A DNA stretch of 47,388 nt. Origin: a virus. Its lineage: Duplodnaviria; Heunggongvirae; Uroviricota; Caudoviricetes. The notes beneath the pieces were generated by a model that did not search any database, was not told the DNA's origin, and saw only the letters and a list, made by a program, of their open reading frames with translations. The stretch lies in IMG/VR virus record IMGVR_UViG_2558860288_000006; one strand, written 5' to 3'. This document shows, piece by piece, positions 1-37,057 of this stretch; position 1 is the first letter of the stretch; each line of letters opens with the position of its first letter. Position numbers and translations under genes: made by a program.

Positions 1-954
1 ATGACTAGCCGCCGCATTGCCTATGCTTATTTCGATCCTGTATGGGATAAAAGCATACACAGTACAGCACAGTTAGTTCGTACAAGTGTTGGACCATTAG
101 AATATCAAGAAGAAATGAAAGATCATCTCATTTGTCCCCAATGTTATGAGCCACTTAATCGTATACCATCAGAGTCAAGTATAACGATTATGACTGACGG
201 GCGAGAAGCTCTCTTCCGCCACTACCCAAATCCAAATGCTCCTTTTTGTTTGTTGAGAAGCGGAGCTATTATCGGGAAACGCTATTCTAGTGAAGAAGAA
301 GCCCAAAAAGCTGTTAGCGACAATGATGTCATTATCATATCCGGATTCATGCAGGAACGACCAGAACTTGTATATCGTGATAATACAGATTCTTCCGCCA
401 CTCGAACGGAAATGTACTTTGAAAGTAAAAATGGGGTATTTGTTGAAATTCCCATCTCTCGTCATCAAGGTGAAACATTCAATCTGCCCAGTAAGATAAC
501 AAGCGTGCAAGCTCTATGTACTAACTTTCAAGAAAACTACTATAAAGAGATATTTATCACCACTGGCACTAGTCTCGCTCGCAGTTATATTTTTTGCGAT
601 GCATTAAAAAGTATTTCTGATATCCGCTCTGAACAAGAAGAACCGGGGTTTTATTTTGGTGAAATAAGTTCAATAGAACAACATACTAATCATTCAACCG
701 TATGGTTAAAATTAAAAGGTTCTTGTTATTATCCTGATTTCAGAGTGCGAATAGAAAATAACACTGCAATTTCTCGTGGTATAACGGACGAAAATGCAAA
801 AAATAGAATTATTATTTTTTACACTCCAATATCATCTGTCGGCATGGGATACTGGACACATATTTTGAAATGGGGGGAAGTAGGTTTACTGGCTGAAAAA
901 CACAAAGATTTTTTACTTGACGATTATAACAAGAAACACACTAGTAACTGTTGA
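1..954 (+). CDS. Hypothetical protein (317 aa), orphan cargo gene at the tail-fibre end
   Basis: ATG-initiated 317-aa ORF, visibly AT-richer than neighbours, convergent with the minus-strand fibre assembly gene; no motif I can assign (single CPQC pair only). Confidence 0.5.
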   Translation: MTSRRIAYAYFDPVWDKSIHSTAQLVRTSVGPLEYQEEMKDHLICPQCYEPLNRIPSESSITIMTDGREALFRHYPNPNAPFCLLRSGAIIGKRYSSEEEAQKAVSDNDVIIISGFMQERPELVYRDNTDSSATRTEMYFESKNGVFVEIPISRHQGETFNLPSKITSVQALCTNFQENYYKEIFITTGTSLARSYIFCDALKSISDIRSEQEEPGFYFGEISSIEQHTNHSTVWLKLKGSCYYPDFRVRIENNTAISRGITDENAKNRIIIFYTPISSVGMGYWTHILKWGEVGLLAEKHKDFLLDDYNKKHTSNC

Positions 955-4995: not shown

Positions 4996-5618
4996 TTTTG
5001 AATCACCGTTGTTGCATAGGAATAAATAAAAGGGAGTTTTACATATTTCTGGTCAATGGCATCTTTCAGAAAATAGCCTATACCATCACCATATTCTGGT
5101 ATCTGAATAGAAAAAACACTGTCCGATACAGTCACGCTCACATCAAAAGTGTGCTGCAACGGCGGGTCTATTCCGTTTTTCCCATGAATGAACCGTGCCA
5201 CACGGCGCTTTAACCAGTCAATGCAGAAATGCGAACCGTCAGCCTTATAAAAATTCCAAGTTAATATTCGCTTGAAATAATCATCCGGAACATACGATGC
5301 CTGCCCCGGAACATAATTCCGCATTGCCGCATAAGGGATTGTATTGTATTCAATGGTATCGTATGCGCCGCGTGCAATAGCCTCCTCGGAAACCTGTAGT
5401 AAAGGCCTTTCAACGCCATAAATCCCGAGAGCAATCCAGTCCAGCAATTGCCCGGTTATTGATTCCGATGTCCAGCATGGCAATGCCAGATTGTTGAGTG
5501 AATCGAGGTATTCCTGAGCAATTTCATTGTATGCATCAAAGAACGCAACAACATTCGGATCATCTCTGTACTGCACAAACGGATAAGCAGGGAGAATTTT
5601 TTCAGTCAGATATTGCAT
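4992..5618 (-). CDS. Baseplate/tail protein (gpI-like position)
   Basis: ORF downstream of the J-like gene; ATG at 5618 (MQYLTEKILP...) chosen over longer in-frame extensions that would overlap the upstream gene by more than 100 nt. Confidence 0.45.
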   Translation of the reverse strand: MQYLTEKILPAYPFVQYRDDPNVVAFFDAYNEIAQEYLDSLNNLALPCWTSESITGQLLDWIALGIYGVERPLLQVSEEAIARGAYDTIEYNTIPYAAMRNYVPGQASYVPDDYFKRILTWNFYKADGSHFCIDWLKRRVARFIHGKNGIDPPLQHTFDVSVTVSDSVFSIQIPEYGDGIGYFLKDAIDQKYVKLPFIYSYATTVIQK

Positions 5619-6828
5619 ACTTGTTAACTTGAACCTGTGATACCACCGTCGAAAAATAGGAATAGGTATCGCCATAAACCAGGCTTGTGTCTTTTGCCGG
5701 AGGAACAATATGGCCATTAATGCCAATGCTCACACTGATTGTTGAGATCAACGTCGCATCAACCAACAATCTGACGGAACTGGTAAAAATATCCTGGATT
5801 CGCAGCAGATTTATCGGGTGTCCGACTTCAATAGAATTGATGTAATCAGCAACGTTTTGCTGCACAGCCATAGCAATACCCGCCGGATCAACATAATCAT
5901 CAGATACAGTGTTCCAGGTGATTAGCACCATGACGTTTTGTGATGACGGGATAACGAACGGCACCTGATAAACATCTGGCGAAACGGTTATTGAAACCGT
6001 GCGTTTTTCCACTGCCGCACCAGATGGATTGCTAACATCGTTGGTCAGTTTCGAAATATCCGGTACAGATTTGTAAATAGCATAAGCCACATCATACGGA
6101 TCACCGCCACCAACAACCGCAACCCATTTCCCCAGCGACGACTGCCGGAAAGAAATCAGGTTTTCTCGCACACCGCTTACTGATTTGAGCATCGCTTTAA
6201 AGCAATCCGGTGTTCCCTGCACACCAAACATGCCGGACTCCATGACTTCGGCGCGGTAAGATGCCCACGTTTGCGCCTCCTGACCTGGCATCCCTGCGGT
6301 AAGGTTCGTGCATTTTACAGGCTGATCTTTGGGTACCGATGTAATGACCTGCGTTACGGTTCCTTCCGGTACAGCCCATGAGCCTGACGTTGTGGCCACA
6401 CAGTAGACTGGCTCAGTCTGCCCGCTTTCCGGCACCACCGTATCGCGGGAAACTGCATACTGGTAGTTGCCGTCACCGACAACAAATCCTTTAGGGATAC
6501 CAAACCCCGGCAACGCCTCAAACACCACGTATACCGCCGTATTTGTACTTAATCCCTTCTGTGCTCCATAAATGTTTCCGAGTTGCATCAGTAACGGAAT
6601 ATTTGCGCCGTATGGGCTTACGGAGTTAATAAGGTCCACCCGCGCCTGGTCTATTAATGCCAGCGCCCCGACAGCCGTGCTGGCAAGGTCTGTAATAAGC
6701 CCCGCCGGAAGGTTGGCTGTATATCCAGGTACTTTTTCGGCAACTCTGGTGATAAGATTCGCGAGCAAATCATTGGGTGGCGTAGGCTGCGCCCCCGCAC
6801 TGGTCATAGTAATTGGTATTTCTGACAT
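5602..6828 (-). CDS. Baseplate J-like protein
   Basis: 408 aa; size and position between W-like and I-like genes in a contractile-tail baseplate cluster. Confidence 0.55.
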   Translation of the reverse strand: MSEIPITMTSAGAQPTPPNDLLANLITRVAEKVPGYTANLPAGLITDLASTAVGALALIDQARVDLINSVSPYGANIPLLMQLGNIYGAQKGLSTNTAVYVVFEALPGFGIPKGFVVGDGNYQYAVSRDTVVPESGQTEPVYCVATTSGSWAVPEGTVTQVITSVPKDQPVKCTNLTAGMPGQEAQTWASYRAEVMESGMFGVQGTPDCFKAMLKSVSGVRENLISFRQSSLGKWVAVVGGGDPYDVAYAIYKSVPDISKLTNDVSNPSGAAVEKRTVSITVSPDVYQVPFVIPSSQNVMVLITWNTVSDDYVDPAGIAMAVQQNVADYINSIEVGHPINLLRIQDIFTSSVRLLVDATLISTISVSIGINGHIVPPAKDTSLVYGDTYSYFSTVVSQVQVNKYAISD

Positions 6829-6840
6829 ATTTACTCCATT

Positions 6841-6866
6841 AAAAAACCCGCTTTCGCGGGTTTTTT
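6841..6866. terminator. Intrinsic terminator hairpin (palindromic, usable on either strand)
   Basis: aaaaaacccgc-tttc-gcgggtttttt: GC stem with 4-nt loop flanked by A6 and T6, 2 nt after the stop of the nuclease-domain gene. Confidence 0.55.
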
Positions 6867-6868
6867 AC

Positions 6869-8029
6869 TTATTCAACCTCTTCTAAACTGCTCACTCTGG
6901 ACCCTCGGCGGAAATTATCATCATTTTTAACATACTCGTATGAATCCAGAATCAAACCAGATATGCGAAGTATATCTTCCGGATTAGTTATATGTATCCT
7001 TTTACCATCCGTATCAAGTCGAGCTCGTCTTATTTCATTCAACTGAACTTCACTAAGCGAAATAGGTAATGTTATAAATGAAGATTTTTTATCATAAAAT
7101 CTTAACAGCCATCTATTAGTTTTACCATTCAATAGTACACCAAAATATGACTCAGTATCTTTATATTCTATATTATCTTCTGTTTGTATGATTTGTTTTA
7201 CCCTTTCAAATAGTTCCAATTCTTTGGCTGTGGTTATTATGTTGGGGTTTTCTTCATCAACAATGGCGTTATTAACTTGTGTATCCGTTGCATCATTTTC
7301 TTTAGTTTGCTCTACCGGTTGTGTAGATAGCCCGGAAACCACCATTGCGCTAACAGCGCGCTCAACGGCCTGTTTAACTAATGGAGTCACGAACTCAAGA
7401 AATCTCTGATTAAGTTGTCTCTCAATATTTGAACGACTAGCAACATATCGAACAAACTCCAGATCAACTTCACGAAGACTAGAACTGATTGTTTTAGTAA
7501 ATGAATTCAAATAAACACTTTCTTCAGCCAGTGTCCGCAAAGCCTCTGGTTTGAATTTATCATAACGAAAACGAAATAATTGTGTAATATCGGAGTGAGT
7601 TAGAGAATCCATTCTTATTTTTAAAAACGGCGTTGAATCCATTATGTTTTTTTGTTTCAAATCCGTAAAAAAACGCCATTCAACACCATTTGTAATGGCT
7701 GATATAGTAACTTCCGGTGTTGAATTAAAATATCTTGATAGCTGTGGGCAGTGATTATCAATTTGTTCTGAAAACGATTTCGCCTCAATGAACATCACAG
7801 GAACATCATGACAAAATAAAGCGTAATCAACCCGTTCATTAGCCTTAACCCCGGGGAAGTCAGCACTATACTCAGCTTTGACTTTTCTTGGATCATACGG
7901 AGTAAAACCAAGAATATCTAGAAATGGCATAATGAGTGCTTGTTTTGTCGTTTCTTCAGTTGTACAAAACACCCCCATTTTTGCAACATGCTCTGTGTGT
8001 ATTTTTAACTTATTTGCAAAATTTTCCAT
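6869..8029 (-). CDS. PD-(D/E)xK nuclease-domain protein (type I restriction HsdR N-terminal / Mrr-like fold) with uncharacterised C-terminal region
   Basis: Motif block ...TKQALIMPFLDILGF...ERVDYALFCHDVPVMFIEAKS (Asp73, Glu87-x-Lys89 in track numbering); AT-rich; inserted between baseplate W-like and J-like genes; ATG at 8029 has a GGAGG SD, alternative ATG at 8044. Confidence 0.6.
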   Translation of the reverse strand: MENFANKLKIHTEHVAKMGVFCTTEETTKQALIMPFLDILGFTPYDPRKVKAEYSADFPGVKANERVDYALFCHDVPVMFIEAKSFSEQIDNHCPQLSRYFNSTPEVTISAITNGVEWRFFTDLKQKNIMDSTPFLKIRMDSLTHSDITQLFRFRYDKFKPEALRTLAEESVYLNSFTKTISSSLREVDLEFVRYVASRSNIERQLNQRFLEFVTPLVKQAVERAVSAMVVSGLSTQPVEQTKENDATDTQVNNAIVDEENPNIITTAKELELFERVKQIIQTEDNIEYKDTESYFGVLLNGKTNRWLLRFYDKKSSFITLPISLSEVQLNEIRRARLDTDGKRIHITNPEDILRISGLILDSYEYVKNDDNFRRGSRVSSLEEVE

Positions 8030-8179
8030 GCTTGTCTCCTCCATGGTAACAATATGTATTTTGCAAATCCGAAATAATATATGTCAATATGCTCCAGCTT
8101 AGAAAATTACTCGCCCCCCCTAAAATATCTCTCTACAGCACTCCAAACCAAGGTAAAAGTTTTATCATAAAACTGTGAT

Positions 8180-8527
8180 TCATACCGGCACCTGCGTCCG
8201 GTAACTGGTCCCATTAAAAAACACAACATCGATGTTATAGGTGGGGTTATCTGCTCCATCTACCTTTGAAATTGCCAGTGATGCAAAATACCCAGCAAAC
8301 TGTTGCTGAACCATGTTCACATAGTAGTCTGGGTAAATCTGCTGCACGATGCACTGCTGTGCAGGAATACCGTAATTCGCGTAAAACGGCGACTCCCCCA
8401 ATCCCAGCTTTAACGTCTGAATGAGCGTCGTCAGCCAGCCGTAGGAGAAATCACCGTTGGCGTCAGATTCTACTGCAACCCATTTTTTGTTGCCGTTCGC
8501 GTCGGTGACGCGGCCCCATGTTCTCAT
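8180..8527 (-). CDS. Baseplate wedge protein (gpW/gp25-like)
   Basis: 115 aa, same length as P2 gpW by my recollection, sits between V-like and J-like genes. Confidence 0.45.
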   Translation of the reverse strand: MRTWGRVTDANGNKKWVAVESDANGDFSYGWLTTLIQTLKLGLGESPFYANYGIPAQQCIVQQIYPDYYVNMVQQQFAGYFASLAISKVDGADNPTYNIDVVFFNGTSYRTQVPV

Positions 8528-8712
8528 CGTGCCCCCATCACTTTAACTAACTCTGTCAGTACTGGTGAAAAGGCAAATGCTAAAGCTACGAGTGCAGCGG
8601 TGTAATACATGCGTCGTAAGGTATTGCTTTTTGCCACTAATTTTAAGGCTTTCACAATCCAGTCTCCTCCGCTAAAATTAATCACGGAAGACCTCCAAAC
8701 ATACGTAATCAT
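8524..8712 (-). CDS. Small hypothetical protein, possibly membrane-associated
   Basis: 62 aa from ATG at 8712; C-terminal hydrophobic stretch YYTAALVALAFAFSPVL; stop overlaps the start of the W-like gene (ATGA); weak SD. Confidence 0.25.
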   Translation of the reverse strand: MITYVWRSSVINFSGGDWIVKALKLVAKSNTLRRMYYTAALVALAFAFSPVLTELVKVMGAR

Positions 8713-8742
8713 CCCTTGCGTATTCAAGGTGAGAAACAGAAA

Positions 8743-8777
8743 CCCCCGACTGGGCCAACAGTCGGGGGTTTCGTTTT
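8743..8777. terminator. Hairpin with flanking T/A-rich tracts (putative terminator/attenuator inside the tail operon)
   Basis: cccccgact-gggccaac-agtcggggg, 9-bp stem, followed by tttcgtttt on the plus strand and preceded by gaaacagaaa. Confidence 0.4.
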
Positions 8778-32895: not shown

Positions 32896-32952
32896 ATGAA
32901 ATCAATCAGAAAGGCGATCCATAAGAACAATAGACAGATAAAGGATAGTCAG

Positions 32953-34314
32953 ATGCAAACAGCAGAGATGTTTCGAAATTTTTTGAACAATTTGAAAATT
33001 TCAGACGAACGTATGCAGGCAATTGCAACACATTATAAAAATGCCACAAGAAGACTTAACATCGAGTTTCGGGGGGTAGCGAATGGATTCAACAATCGAT
33101 TGAAAGTCGGTTCAGCAGGTCGCCGAACAGCGGTTAGCAAAACATCAGACTTGGATATGCTGTATATTATGCCCGCGAGATTGTGGGGAGATTACCAATC
33201 CGGTGTTAATCCACAGCGCCGTTTGCTTCGCGATGTAAAAGAAGCATTAAAACTATCTTTTACCCAGCAAGAGATCAAGGTTGATAGATTAGTTGTACAA
33301 ATCATTTTTGACTCTTTTCATATAGAGGTGCAACCAGTTTTTGAGACTGATGAAGGGCATTTTAAATATCCTGATACTAAGGCCAACGATGGTAATGGAG
33401 GGTGGCGAGTAACTAAACCTCGGATGGAAATTACCGAAATGAGAAATTTCCGTAATAACAAAAGTAGTAATCTTCATAATCTTTGCCGCATGTTAAGAGC
33501 CTGGAAAAATAGAAACACCGTTGATATGGGGGGGCTTCTCATTGACACATTGGCTTGGAGATTTCTGAAACAAACAGATGATTATGATAATACCGGAATG
33601 GTCAGTTATGGGCTTATGTGTCGAGACTTCTTTGACTTTTTGCATCAAGAAGATGTCCATGAACATTATGCAGCGATAGGAAGTGTGCAGAGAGTTAAGG
33701 TCTATAGAAATTTTCAGCGGCAAGCAAAACGAGCCTTTAAATTATGCACAAAAGCGATTGAAGCTTATGAGAATGGCTCGACAAAGAAATGCCACGAACA
33801 CTGGCGAGAAGTTTTTGGGCTAACTTTCCCTAAAGCAGTTGTAGAAATGCGTGACTCTCAGGGGTTAGAGTCAGCTAATTTCATCAATGAGTCCTATACG
33901 GCTCAGACGTGGCGCAATACGGAAGAGTTTACAGATGAAAAGTTTGATGATGTTGATATAAGATACCCCCTCGAAGTTAACTGCATTGTCAAAGAAAACG
34001 GGTATAGGGACCGTGCAATTAGGGCTTACCTGTCGGATATGGCTCGTTATTGGTTACCACCGAATAGAACTTTATCATTTTCGATCAACCAAGCAAGTTT
34101 GGATATCATTCCTGAGCCTTATGATATTTACTGGAAAGTACTGAATAGAGGTTTAGAAGCTGAGCAGCGTGATGAAGTTCGAGGTCAAATAGTTTTAGGT
34201 CAAGTAACTCACACTGAACATACAAAATTTAGAGGTGATCACAAGGTTTGGTGTTACATAGTTAAGAACCATATAGTAATTGCCCAAAACGTTATCGACA
34301 TACCAATCGAGTAA
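32953..34314 (+). CDS. Nucleotidyltransferase, Pol-beta superfamily (CD-NTase/SMODS-like signalling enzyme candidate)
   Basis: Active-site pattern ...KVGSAGRRTAVSKTSDLDMLYIMP... (GS, DxD) and a later acidic strand ...VVQIIFDSFHIE...; ATG at 32953 has an AAGGA SD (alternative ATG at 32896 gives 472 aa); AT-rich, plus strand. Confidence 0.65.
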   Translation: MQTAEMFRNFLNNLKISDERMQAIATHYKNATRRLNIEFRGVANGFNNRLKVGSAGRRTAVSKTSDLDMLYIMPARLWGDYQSGVNPQRRLLRDVKEALKLSFTQQEIKVDRLVVQIIFDSFHIEVQPVFETDEGHFKYPDTKANDGNGGWRVTKPRMEITEMRNFRNNKSSNLHNLCRMLRAWKNRNTVDMGGLLIDTLAWRFLKQTDDYDNTGMVSYGLMCRDFFDFLHQEDVHEHYAAIGSVQRVKVYRNFQRQAKRAFKLCTKAIEAYENGSTKKCHEHWREVFGLTFPKAVVEMRDSQGLESANFINESYTAQTWRNTEEFTDEKFDDVDIRYPLEVNCIVKENGYRDRAIRAYLSDMARYWLPPNRTLSFSINQASLDIIPEPYDIYWKVLNRGLEAEQRDEVRGQIVLGQVTHTEHTKFRGDHKVWCYIVKNHIVIAQNVIDIPIE

Positions 34315-34319
34315 TTATC

Positions 34320-34901
34320 ATGCAAAAAAATGACTTATTATCTCAGATTGCCTCTGCCGGATATAATGTTGGATTTGGCGCTAAGAAAAATTTTGCTACA
34401 TTTGATATTGTTAGCAAACTCCCTGGCTGGATTGGTATTATATCACTAGCAGTCTCTATTTTAGGCCTTTATATGGATGAAATGAGTTCTAAGAATATTG
34501 CAGCCATTTTTATCATTTTAAGCATTGGCAGTTTGTACATCAATTTCTATGATGGTGATAAAAATAAATATGAAGAGGCTGGAAAGAAGCAAACAGCAAT
34601 CTTTAGAAAGATTGAAAGATTGTATTACGATGCAAAATCAGAAAGCGAACCGGATTCTGTTAAATATATTGGGCAACTTGACATTCTGTTAAAAGAATTT
34701 GATGAAACCACTATCACCAAACAAATTTGTGGAAGCAATTGGTATGCTCATTATAAATTCTTTAGTGAAATGGAAAAAAGGTGGCTTGAAGATCAGTTGT
34801 CATTGACTTTCTGGAAGGATAAAGTCCCTAACACTTTGAAATTTCTCATTCTGATAGTTTTCTGCGTCGTTTTGCTTTCGATAATTTATAGGTGTGGTTG
34901 A
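34320..34901 (+). CDS. Small membrane protein with three predicted TM helices (candidate effector)
   Basis: 193 aa; hydrophobic helices WIGIISLAVSILGLYM, IAAIFIILSIGSLYINF and C-terminal FLILIVFCVVLLSIIY; start 5 nt after the NTase stop (operon). Confidence 0.6.
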   Translation: MQKNDLLSQIASAGYNVGFGAKKNFATFDIVSKLPGWIGIISLAVSILGLYMDEMSSKNIAAIFIILSIGSLYINFYDGDKNKYEEAGKKQTAIFRKIERLYYDAKSESEPDSVKYIGQLDILLKEFDETTITKQICGSNWYAHYKFFSEMEKRWLEDQLSLTFWKDKVPNTLKFLILIVFCVVLLSIIYRCG

Positions 34902-35142: not shown

Positions 35143-35511
35143 TTACTTCGCTCTCCAAGCACTCTCTACAAACGATGTTATTACGCCTGTCGTAACGACG
35201 TATTTCTCCATCAGGTAATGACAGATAAGGTCCGGATCAACCACAGATGGTTTCTTCAGCTTTGCCCTTGAGAGTTTTTTGCGGGCCTTTATCCAGTCCT
35301 TACGTGCCTGTTCAGACGGAAATAACCCGTAGCCGGAGTTGTATAAATCGCCACTGGCAACCAGCTCTCTGGCAAGAACACTCATCAGATATCTTGTCGC
35401 ACCTGTCTTAGCTTCCAGTTGTCGTAACGTCTCGCGCCCACTCTGGCGCACGAGCTCAACAACCTTCCCCTTAATTTTTTCCCGCTCTTCTTGTGTAAAT
35501 ACTTTTGCCAT
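35143..35511 (-). CDS. Hypothetical protein (122 aa), early region
   Basis: ATG at 35511 with a GGAGG SD; basic helical protein (…KARKKLSRAKLKK…); downstream of the replication genes. Confidence 0.45.
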   Translation of the reverse strand: MAKVFTQEEREKIKGKVVELVRQSGRETLRQLEAKTGATRYLMSVLARELVASGDLYNSGYGLFPSEQARKDWIKARKKLSRAKLKKPSVVDPDLICHYLMEKYVVTTGVITSFVESAWRAK

Positions 35512-35526
35512 AAGCGCCTCCGGCAA

Positions 35527-36288
35527 TCACTTTTCCGACACAATACGACTGGAGGAATCAACAATCTGTCGAACAATATCCCGGTGCTTATTCAGCTCCC
35601 GCAGCGCGGCGCAGACACGCTCCCACTTCTGGACATGACTTTTCGCCCGACGCAGTTCGCGATTTGCCATATGCAGCGATGGTAAAACCAGGTCATCCGC
35701 TTGCGTTTCGGTGAACGGTGGCAACGACTGCACAATGTCCGCCACAGTTTCTGTTTTAATATCTTCCTGTGTTGCAGCCTCCTGTACTGGTAACGCAACA
35801 CCTGCTAGTTGAGGAAAGGCTTTACCATCAGTTTCCGTTACCGATACAGCTTTCGGCTCTGCTGGTAAATCATCGCCCGGCATGCAGTAACGAAATTTAC
35901 CGTTCTGATTAACGCGAATCAGACGGCCTTTGCTGATTGCCATTGCCAGCGTTGAAGCCACTTTGCGTGATGTGGTGCCGAAAAACGTAGCCAGTTCATC
36001 CGCCGTTTGTGGGCCACGTTGTTCAATCGTCGCGGTTAAATCGCACTCTGAGATTTTCGCTACTGTTGCCGTGGTGGTTTCTTCCGGCAGTTCTGCCTGC
36101 TCTGCCTGTTCCTGCTGAACGTTGTTATCAGCCACACGCCAGGTGTATACGCTTTTATCAACGAAGCCAGCCTTTTTAAGTTCCCACAGCTCGTTCAACA
36201 CTTCTTCACGACTGATATCAAGTCGCGCAGCCAGTTCTACCGACGTGGCTTTTCCCATTGCTTTCAGTGCGTCAAAAACAGTCTCCAT
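35527..36288 (-). CDS. Winged-helix DNA-binding domain protein
   Basis: ATG at 36288 with a GGGAGG SD; N-terminal ...[30 protein letters not shown]... wHTH-like; a second similar segment in the middle (...[20 protein letters not shown]...). Confidence 0.45.
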
Positions 36289-36310
36289 TAAAATTTCCTC
36301 CCGGTAAAAA

Positions 36311-37057
36311 TCACTTCGCAATTCCTGGCTGGACGACATTCGGACGCCAGCTCTCCCAGTTAAAATTCACCCATCGCCCGCCGTTCATGGTCATGCGATC
36401 CATAATCCTCTCGCCGAGCAATGTTTTCATGGCCTCATAGTTCAGGTTTGTCAGCATCCCCACGCTGCGCATCGACGCTGTCCGGCGATCAACAATCTGA
36501 TGCAGCACCACCTGCTCGTTTTTTGTCTCACGCTGAATGCCAATTTCATCAAGAACCAGCAGATCCACTTCGCACAGTTCCCGCAAAAATTTTTCGCCTG
36601 ATTTCCCGTCGTCATAGCTGGCGTGTAGAGCACTCATGACATCAGCCACGGTAACCACAATCACTGTCTGGCCATCTTTCAGCAGGCGATTCCCGATTGC
36701 CGCCGCCAGATGGTTTTTTCCGGTACCAGGTTTTCCGCTGAACGCAAAATTTGTACACCCGGTCATCAGTTCATCAGCGATAGATTTCGCCTGGCTCAAC
36801 GCGTATCGCTGGCCGTCGTTCTGCACCAGGTAATTCGCAAACGAGCATTTGCGGTGCAACGGCTGGATGCCGGAGCGATTCAGGATTTTTTCCACCCGCA
36901 ACTGACGATTCTGACGGTTGATCTCCTCACAACGTTTCTGGCCTTCTGCAAGTTGCCACTCGCGCCACTCAGCCACCGTCCTGAATGGCGCGGTTACATG
37001 TGGCGGGGCCAGTCTGCGGATACGTTCCAGAACGCCGCCTGTCGCAATATTTTTCAT
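36311..37057 (-). CDS. ydaV: DnaC-like helicase loader (IstB-type AAA+ ATPase)
   Basis: Walker [16 protein letters not shown] and Walker [10 protein letters not shown]; 248 aa; downstream of the replication initiator as in Rac ydaU-ydaV. Confidence 0.75.

Follow-up and report, generated by a model that had tools for sequence, protein, structure and literature searches.

Single-chain restriction enzymes of types IV and IIM are small soluble proteins that join a nuclease to a reader domain, lack a cognate methyltransferase, and are found on mobile elements. In PvuRts1I and AbaSI, an N-terminal nuclease is followed by a C-terminal SRA-like reader, and in DpnI a PD-(D/E)xK nuclease is coupled to a winged helix. 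Mrr and MspJI are further enzymes of this type, and McrA of e14 is a precedent for a type IV enzyme that is borne by a prophage. The gene described here encodes a protein of the same general plan, with a putative reader. It occupies positions 6869..8029 on the minus strand of IMG/VR record IMGVR_UViG_2558860288_000006, a 47,388-nucleotide stretch of Caudoviricetes DNA that was analyzed as a whole and is called the window below. The element that carries the gene is an Escherichia coli Rac-type prophage at the ttcA site.

Passengers of prophage immunity regions include rexAB of phage lambda, sieB of P22, and bstA of BTP1. The rexAB slot lies behind the lambda repressor, and genes in this position are cotranscribed with the repressor in lysogens. 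The concept of the moron comes from the late operons of the lambdoid phages HK97 and HK022. As in those morons, and as in the defense hotspots of P2 and P4 (PMC9122126), the gene studied here is an extra gene of foreign composition between conserved structural genes, in a slot whose cargo varies.

On the basis of its sequence and setting, we lean toward the view that the gene serves in nuclease-based defense. Nuclease genes are already familiar as morons of prophages. What is new here is the domain combination, an HsdR-type nuclease followed by a predicted double-wing domain, of which we found no description; the relatives of the gene form a candidate single-gene defense family. If its function is confirmed, this family would be compact (~1.2 kb), widespread, and missed by PADLOC v2.

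Domain architecture of the protein

The nuclease domain spans amino acids (aa) 1-140 (7610..8029, minus strand). A reading made earlier from the sequence alone, hereafter the sequence-only reading, had quoted a PD-(D/E)xK motif (D73, E87-x-K89 in the numbering of a 391-aa protein). This motif is present in the open reading frame (ORF), where it corresponds to D68 and E82-x-K84 in the 386-aa numbering used here; E25 and Q96xxxY100 are the other residues of the set. The same reading had called the domain HsdR-N/Mrr-type. The first half of this description is supported by Pfam matches to HSDR_N (PF04313; 8.8e-14, 52.3 bits versus a cut-off of 25.1) and HSDR_N_2 (PF13588; 1e-08, 35.7 bits versus a cut-off of 25), both of which span aa 30-133. 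The second half is not, because the family matched is HSDR_N instead of Mrr_cat.

Conservation of the catalytic residues was assessed in 125 distant representatives that are 27-55% identical to the query. E25, D68, K84, and Y100 are found in all 125, and E82 and Q96 are each found in 124. The sequence Q96-L-S-R-Y100 falls in the helix directly after motif III, as in EcoR124I. The QxxxY motif marks RecB-family nucleases and has been subjected to mutagenesis in EcoR124I (PMC2475608). The domain also has the restriction-endonuclease-like fold. As judged by these motifs and profiles, the N-terminal domain is a complete HsdR/RecB-type PD-(D/E)xK nuclease. It is the best conserved part of the protein, with 82% identity within Enterobacterales/Pasteurellaceae and 50% identity to Clostridia.

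In its fold, its D...ExK residues, and its QxxxY helix, the protein resembles type I HsdR (EcoR124I) and the type IIG/IIL enzymes (BpuSI, DrdV), and in all of these the nuclease is N-terminal and is followed by a helical connector. However, the superfamily 2 (SF2) motor, methyltransferase, target-recognition domain, and HsdM/HsdS partners of those systems are absent here, and a double-wing domain is present instead. Without a motor, ATP-driven translocation and collision are impossible for this protein. The Prokaryotic Genome Annotation Pipeline (PGAP) nevertheless names it "type I restriction endonuclease," which could be taken to mean that it is the R subunit of a type I system. We give scarcely any credence to this reading, or to its companion that the protein is a structural part of the baseplate (considered below). 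The protein has only 386 aa, Pfam detects neither ResIII nor Helicase_C in it, no helicase or translocase fold appears in the AlphaFold2 (AF2) model, and the NCBIfam HsdR equivalog PRK11448 scores 18.9 bits versus a cut-off of 729. Moreover, no hsdM or hsdS gene is adjacent in the window or in any neighborhood examined. The PGAP name is thus a misnomer.

The label "type I restriction endonuclease (subunit R)" is likewise attached to many relatives of ~380 aa, and some even carry the name "DNA polymerase III subunit epsilon." Both names are misleading because the proteins have no motor or polymerase-associated domain. In annotation, thousands of ~380-aa proteins thus bear the name "type I restriction endonuclease" without being type I enzymes.

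The ~280 aa beyond the nuclease had been left unassigned, with structure prediction proposed as the means to resolve them. They now resolve into a connector, a linker, and a double-wing domain, the first helical and the second acidic and hypervariable. The connector (aa 141-234; 7328..7609, minus strand) is conserved and mostly helical, with one short strand and four helices (AF2 predicted local distance difference test [pLDDT] ~65-90). It has no Pfam match, and it is 78% identical within Enterobacterales/Pasteurellaceae and 29% identical to its counterparts in Clostridia. It may be a dimerization or coupling element. The linker (aa 235-262; 7244..7327, minus strand) is predicted to be disordered (pLDDT <50 for aa 234-253), is acidic (isoelectric point [pI] 4.05), and retains just 26% identity within Enterobacterales/Pasteurellaceae and 12% to Clostridia.

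The C-terminal domain (aa 263-375; 6905..7243, minus strand) is predicted to adopt the double-wing (frataxin-like) fold of YdhG, YjbR, and the C-terminal domain (CTD) of T4 MotA, a fold also represented by CyaY. Its best structural match is 9t2w, a YdhG-like protein that its depositors labeled "Frataxin." Identity is 61% within Enterobacterales/Pasteurellaceae and 29% to Clostridia, and residues T266, T267, E270, K/R290, D291, Y295, and R310 are shared by members as distant as those of Enterobacterales, Clostridia, and an archaeon. The domain has no sequence-profile match to the families of the MotA CTD, YjbR/MmcQ (PF04237), or YdhG-like DUF1801: with the last 131 aa as query and a threshold of E <= 10, Pfam gave none to YjbR/MmcQ or DUF1801, and it returned only noise for the isolated middle and C-terminal parts. 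PDB profile searches with the full-length protein and with the C-terminal domain gave 0 matches, and a structure search of BFVD recovered one family member and otherwise nothing significant. No transmembrane segment or hydrophobic stretch is present (maximum Kyte-Doolittle value over 19 residues [KD19] 1.08).

Several relatives of this fold act on DNA or are expected to do so. The MotA CTD binds DNA, YjbR is a predicted DNA binder, and YjbR domains are reported to be fused to GIY-YIG or PLD nucleases, to EVE readers, and to TerB (PMC7641849). For McrB-N, the reader of McrBC that flips 5-methylcytosine, YktB and YjbR are the reported structural neighbors (PMC3424535); McrB-N was absent among the structure-search matches of the present C-terminal domain. 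On these grounds, and given the predicted fold, it is reasonable to suppose that the C-terminal domain binds DNA. The fact that its invariant residues are shared across phyla favors a ligand that occurs universally, such as DNA, over a phage protein specific to one lineage.

The sequence-only reading had listed the ORF at 6869..8044 (minus strand, 391 aa), where it is indeed present, and had allowed for a length of either 386 or 391 aa. The shorter version, which begins at the second ATG (8029), is almost certainly correct, and the start at 8044 is not upheld by homolog alignment, the Shine-Dalgarno sequence, or PGAP. All 46 aligned homologs start at the position of the second ATG, with MENF or MESF, and the PGAP product comprises the same 386 aa (WP_023568477.1). 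A Shine-Dalgarno sequence read from the DNA, GGAGGAG at 8036..8042 (minus strand), lies 6 nucleotides (nt) 5' of the ATG at 8029. Because it overlaps the first in-frame ATG (8044), it favors 8029 as the start. The resulting coding sequence (6869..8029, minus strand; 386 aa plus stop) matches phrog_4225 over its full length (3.4e-149). The gap upstream of the gene is 135 bp when measured to the first ATG, as had been reported, and 150 bp when measured to the true start.

The cargo segment and the W-J junction

The gene lies between a baseplate J-like gene (5602..6828, minus strand) and a 115-aa "W-like" gene (8180..8527, minus strand), both of which are outside the cargo. The J-like gene matches Pfam Baseplate_J (8.3e-08) and phrog_6, a baseplate wedge subunit, so this neighbor was identified correctly in the sequence-only reading. 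The upstream gene is "W-like" by size and position only. It has no Pfam family, matches phrog_7986 (unknown function; 1.6e-64), and is conserved in Escherichia phage Rac-SA53 (rac59) and Actinobacillus phage vB_Apl-pPE4 (pPE4).

Rac-SA53 and pPE4 possess both flanks at 89-97% identity and lack the nuclease gene. Homology to these two phages stops at 6836 and restarts at 8169, which delimits a cargo segment of 1.33 kb at 6837-8168 (minus strand). Homology to E. coli ETEC4090 stops at 6848 and restarts at 8170. The cargo is also distinct in composition. Its strong AT-richness, first noticed by eye, is evident from a GC content of 0.357 and a GC content at third codon positions (GC3) of 0.256, compared with 0.495 and 0.491 for the J-like gene and a GC content of 0.497 for the W-like gene.

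The same slot holds rac62, rac61, and ant on the opposite strand in Rac-SA53, a hypothetical gene and an anti-repressor gene in pPE4, and an LprI-family gene with a truncated antA in ETEC4090. Among 5,426 complete E. coli genomes, 25 carry the nuclease gene at the W-J junction, at 99-100% identity. Approximately 66 further E. coli genomes, of 91 that match the query flanks, have one or both flanks with other content. Comparison with Rac-SA53, pPE4, and ETEC4090 thus bears out the proposal that the ORF interrupts a conserved gene series. At least four alternative contents occur at the W-J junction, which is a hotspot of variable cargo. In the literature searched, we found no account of a hotspot at the W-like/J junction of Rac-type myovirus-like tails. 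A structural role in the baseplate might be suspected for a gene that resides between baseplate genes on the same strand. However, related phages that produce this baseplate lack the gene at the junction, and unrelated cargo takes its position in Rac-SA53, pPE4, ETEC4090, and the ~66 E. coli genomes. It is therefore not a conserved baseplate component.

A predicted intrinsic terminator hairpin (6840..6867, minus strand), composed of an A-tract, 5 G-C pairs, a GAAA loop, and a T-tract, follows the stop codon directly, as the sequence-only reading had proposed. The hairpin, AAAAAACCCGC-GAAA-GCGGGTTTTTT, has a predicted free energy of -17.4 kcal/mol (z = -4.83), and 0 of 200 shuffled sequences were as stable. 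Its inverted repeat is 12 nt in length and 100% complementary, and 12 nt separate the end of the hairpin from the start codon of the J-like gene. A simple terminator scan missed the hairpin because the T-run is absorbed into the stem. Rfam searches of the cargo gave sub-threshold matches only, which were caused by the same hairpin.

Upstream of the gene is a promoter-like site (8058..8087, minus strand) with a -35 element TTGACA (8087-8082), an 18-nt spacer, and a -10 element CAAAAT (8063-8058), which together match the consensus at 10 of 12 positions. This site has the top score in a scan of 4.1 kb, tied with one plus-strand site at 8651-8678. With its foreign composition, promoter-like site, and predicted terminator of its own, the gene is, in its sequence anatomy, a moron. 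Horizontal acquisition is the best explanation for its presence.

Several repeats occur in and near the segment. An exact 12-nt direct repeat, CCATTAAAAAAC, is found at 6836-6847, the left breakpoint of the cargo, and at 8211-8222; the second copy is 42 bp inside the W-like gene, away from the right breakpoint. The repeat may be recombination microhomology or may have arisen by chance. A pair of near-palindromic motifs, ATTTGCAAAAT and ATTTTGCAAAT, share the core TTTGCAAA and are located 46 bp apart at 8012-8022 and 8058-8068. One copy lies over the putative -10 element, and the other lies over codons 3-6 of the nuclease gene. The pair could be an operator pair, but statistically it is no better than chance in AT-rich DNA. 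The direct repeat (12 nt) and the inverted repeat (11 nt, at 8012 and 8058) are both within chance expectation, and neither was used as evidence.

Farther upstream, between the V-like baseplate gene and a small ORF that precedes the W-like gene, a very strong hairpin is present at 8739-8772. Its 14-bp stem includes 9 G-C pairs (GAAACCCCCGACTG...CAGTCGGGGGTTTC), and it scanned as terminator-like on both strands.

Distribution of the family and its placement behind repressors

Relatives of the protein are numerous. Word-indexed searches returned 1,352 and 2,660 matches, and among clusters at 50% identity there are 3,335 with E <= 1e-3 and 314 with E <= 1e-30. A family member is carried by 456 IMG/VR contigs. 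The range of the family includes Enterobacterales, Pasteurellaceae, Clostridia, streptococci, enterococci, Porphyromonas, corynebacteria, and Methanococcus maripaludis. The M. maripaludis member is 60% identical to a Clostridium phage protein, which implies horizontal transfer between domains of life. Among the members of unusual length that were scanned, a single fusion was found, a metagenomic protein of 509 aa in which a partial TerD domain precedes HSDR_N. This may be a real fusion or an artefact of gene calling.

Gene order was examined in 57 viral loci from IMG/VR at 60-85% identity, of which 53 include upstream sequence. In 50 of these 53 loci, the ORF closest on the upstream side runs in the same direction as the homolog and has a length typical of a class of repressors, with gaps of 8-172 bp. 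By size, 18 of the 50 ORFs resemble S24-type cI, 27 resemble RacR (158-160 aa), and 5 are short. The short ORFs encode helix-turn-helix (HTH) proteins, one of them Arc-like and one truncated at a contig end. Pfam detected HTH_3 in 21 and Peptidase_S24 in 20 of 51 upstream ORFs. A RacR-size representative is identical to a gene of Klebsiella KpF5 that is annotated as a Rac-type repressor, and copies in E. coli that are 98.9% identical at the DNA level are annotated racR. A divergent ORF lies ahead of the upstream ORF in all 51 loci with a plus-strand upstream ORF, and the two representatives that were scanned are Cro/YdaS-like.

This arrangement recurs among annotated records and contigs from metagenomes. 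The gene directly follows the repressor in Klebsiella KpF5, lies 22 bp after cI in Citrobacter, and lies 9 bp after cI in Morganella, where it is found in three different backbones. The order is repressor-x-gene-integrase in Streptococcus IPP25 and repressor-ImmA-gene in Enterococcus EG-TP1, and Clostridium CWou-2020a has the same repressor layout. In its position directly behind the repressor and on the same strand, with gaps that can be as small as 8-21 bp, the family resembles lambda rexAB. However, the protein is unrelated to the products of rexAB and bstA, being a predicted nuclease rather than a membrane-depolarizing pair or a KilA-N protein. Also unlike rexAB, the copy in the window is a self-contained moron in a late operon. 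The finding that homologs directly follow unrelated types of prophage repressor strengthens the idea that the family is expressed in lysogens. That the gene is almost invariably found behind a prophage repressor, of any of four unrelated kinds, also suggests a "gene in the rex slot" rule for finding prophage defense genes.

Other members are found at other moron sites, including between Q and stx2 in an Stx2 prophage and after hicAB in Porphyromonas phages. In Phocoenobacter, a homolog lies between the tail chaperone and tape-measure genes and adjoins a Bro-N gene. The Stx2-prophage copy, from E. coli JNEC-KY177 (WP_032188582.1, 7968-9125), is 78% identical at the DNA level, is antisense between the Q antiterminator gene and the tRNA/stx2AB genes, and adjoins a DNA methyltransferase gene. 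The copies of C. perfringens, Edwardsiella, and Methanococcus stand by themselves, surrounded by housekeeping genes. In a different Clostridium, the neighbors are Schlafen-like helicase, nSTAND3, and MazG-like genes. Across the neighborhoods examined, no recurring partner gene or methyltransferase was observed.

These data bear on two explanations that do not involve defense. In the first, the protein would be a nuclease of DNA metabolism, with a role in recombination or repair, the processing of replication intermediates, the degradation of host DNA during lytic growth, or prophage maintenance. We judge this to be improbable. The gene is dispensable and patchy, as is evident from its low frequency in E. 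coli genomes and from close phage relatives that lack it. Its terminator directly before an essential baseplate gene is typical of a moron and not of an integrated late function. Furthermore, the great majority of family members lie behind the repressor, in the immunity region, and not in replication or recombination modules, and these prophages already have RecET or Rus-type functions.

In the second explanation, the gene would be a selfish element similar to a homing endonuclease gene, whose product cuts phage genomes that lack the gene, and the gene would then be copied into the cut site. In favor of this view, the nuclease is free-standing and has a putative DNA-binding domain, and its AT-rich gene sits exactly between conserved neighbors and varies in presence among close relatives. 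However, proteins that are 67-78% identical (or genes that are 78% identical in DNA) occupy at least four unrelated sites, namely the W-J junction, the position behind cI or RacR, the Q-stx2 interval, and a tail-gene cluster, and one specificity cannot home to all of them. In addition, the W-J junction accepts unrelated cargo that is not a nuclease, the family is stable as a lone chromosomal gene in Clostridium and Methanococcus, and the flanking repeats noted above do not exceed chance. Homing is thus a very unlikely account of the gene.

Possible mode of action and other cargo of the lineage

The nuclease has no cognate methyltransferase, as indicated by the single-gene content of the cargo and by the solitary occurrence of the gene in several genomes. 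This lack leaves two main options: the protein recognizes a feature found only in invaders, or it is activated by a trigger. By analogy, the protein would most likely work in the manner of the single-chain type IV and type IIM enzymes. It differs from them in its putative reader, because the predicted fold is double-wing/frataxin-like and not SRA, EVE, YTH, or winged helix. The double-wing fold is so far not known as a reader of non-self DNA.

In the defense scheme that we prefer, the moron would encode a self-sufficient soluble DNA endonuclease that acts as a one-protein defense of the lysogen and its prophage against foreign DNA, mainly that of other phages. In the lysogen, a promoter of its own would drive the gene, and the terminator would keep the cargo transcript out of J and the tail-fiber genes. 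The C-terminal double-wing domain would discriminate the target by binding a DNA feature that the host and prophage lack. Modified bases and unusual DNA structures are the likeliest candidates, and with such a specificity the protein would resemble a type IV or type IIM enzyme that lacks a methyltransferase. The helical connector would couple or dimerize the protein so that an otherwise nonspecific nuclease cuts. During lytic growth of the prophage, late transcription presumably reads through the cargo into J and the tail-fiber genes, and the protein would also be made at this stage. If it is present during its own phage's late transcription, it has to leave ordinary E. coli-type DNA intact. 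That the C-terminal domain itself recognizes non-self DNA is a tentative proposal that we hold with considerable doubt.

The other option is that the protein is a trigger-activated nuclease of abortive infection (Abi). Its C-terminal domain would sense a phage protein or small ligand, the nuclease would destroy phage and host DNA, and the cell would die before progeny are formed. The position of the family matches that of RexAB-type Abi genes behind the repressor, and the C-terminal fold is common to protein- and ligand-binding proteins of the frataxin/YdhG type. The C-terminal domain (61%/29%) and the linker (26%/12%) evolve faster than the nuclease (82%/50%), the acidic disordered linker could be autoinhibitory, and no methyltransferase protects self DNA. 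However, the conservation of C-terminal residues across Enterobacterales, Clostridia, and an archaeon is difficult to reconcile with the sensing of proteins from phages of such different hosts. Moreover, the closest functionally characterized relative of the fold, the MotA CTD, binds DNA, as YjbR is predicted to do. We consider abortive infection less probable than direct recognition, but a stronger contender than the explanations that do not involve defense.

Several observations weigh against a defense role or against the mechanism outlined for it. The promoter is a consensus match only; shuffled sequences yield 7.1 +/- 3.1 such sites, which are common in AT-rich DNA. The copy in the window is at the W-J junction, outside the repressor-adjacent slot. 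Because of this location, the argument from association with repressors reaches it by homology only. The fold of the C-terminal domain alone is no proof of DNA binding because the YdhG relatives to which 9t2w belongs are, in the portion of the source that was available, iron- or heme-related proteins. The domain has a pI of 5.9 and is overall not basic, and the AF2 predicted template-modeling score (pTM) of 0.50 means that the arrangement of the domains is not predicted. At E <= 1, PADLOC-DB v2.0.0 gave matches to 0 families. As a positive control, the cyclic-oligonucleotide-based antiphage signaling system (CBASS) genes of the same window match PADLOC strongly. Finally, no characterized family member was found in the available literature, including DefensePredictor and its supplements, a paper on domain-centric discovery, SNIPE, and Vassallo et al.

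Among the matches listed in the DefensePredictor supplement are unrelated proteins of 825-883 aa. A relationship to SNIPE was considered and rejected, because SNIPE is membrane-bound and the present protein has no hydrophobic segment. A protein of ~348 aa with an HsdR-N domain, which may or may not belong to the present family, occurs in a phage-resistant Campylobacter strain and is absent from a sensitive one, a correlative observation (PMC8713573).

More speculatively, the family might constitute an unrecognized class of one-protein restriction enzyme without a methyltransferase, in which an HsdR-type nuclease is steered by a double-wing domain that reads invader DNA, for example through a hypermodified base or through an intermediate of replication or injection. 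Such a class would extend from enterobacterial prophages to Clostridia and methanogens and would reside habitually in the repressor operon as an analog of rexAB. We regard this as conceivable but doubtful. If true, it would reveal a new way for a nuclease that lacks a methyltransferase to distinguish self from non-self, with a reader fold that has not yet been linked to immunity.

The same prophage carries a second AT-rich island (32896-34901, plus strand; GC content 0.35-0.41), which encodes a type I CBASS. Its genes are for a SMODS and AGS_C cyclase (472 aa; PADLOC cyclase, 7e-157) and for a SLATT_6 effector with two transmembrane segments (193 aa; 8e-78). Thus, known defense cargo travels in this phage lineage. 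At the corresponding annotated position in the prophage of E. coli GmM062, located by coordinate offset and unaligned, are genes for a "beta family protein" and an "sce7726 family protein," and the island is probably another swap hotspot. Together, the W-like/J junction and the CBASS island mark Rac-type prophages as carriers of swappable defense cargo. The repressor of the GmM062 prophage itself has no gene of the nuclease family behind it.

Two further genes may be of interest in this respect. An AT-rich ORF of 317 aa (1-954, plus strand) is located at the prophage end beyond the tail-fiber genes. It has no Pfam or PADLOC match, is listed by PGAP as hypothetical (WP_047649541.1), and may be another cargo gene. 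In GmM062, a 478-aa head-region protein (35381-36817 of the prophage) is encoded beside terminase and has the PGAP label "anti-CBASS protein Acb1 family protein," a label only. Its location is equivalent to the head-gene region of the window, and the prophage lineage can itself carry CBASS.

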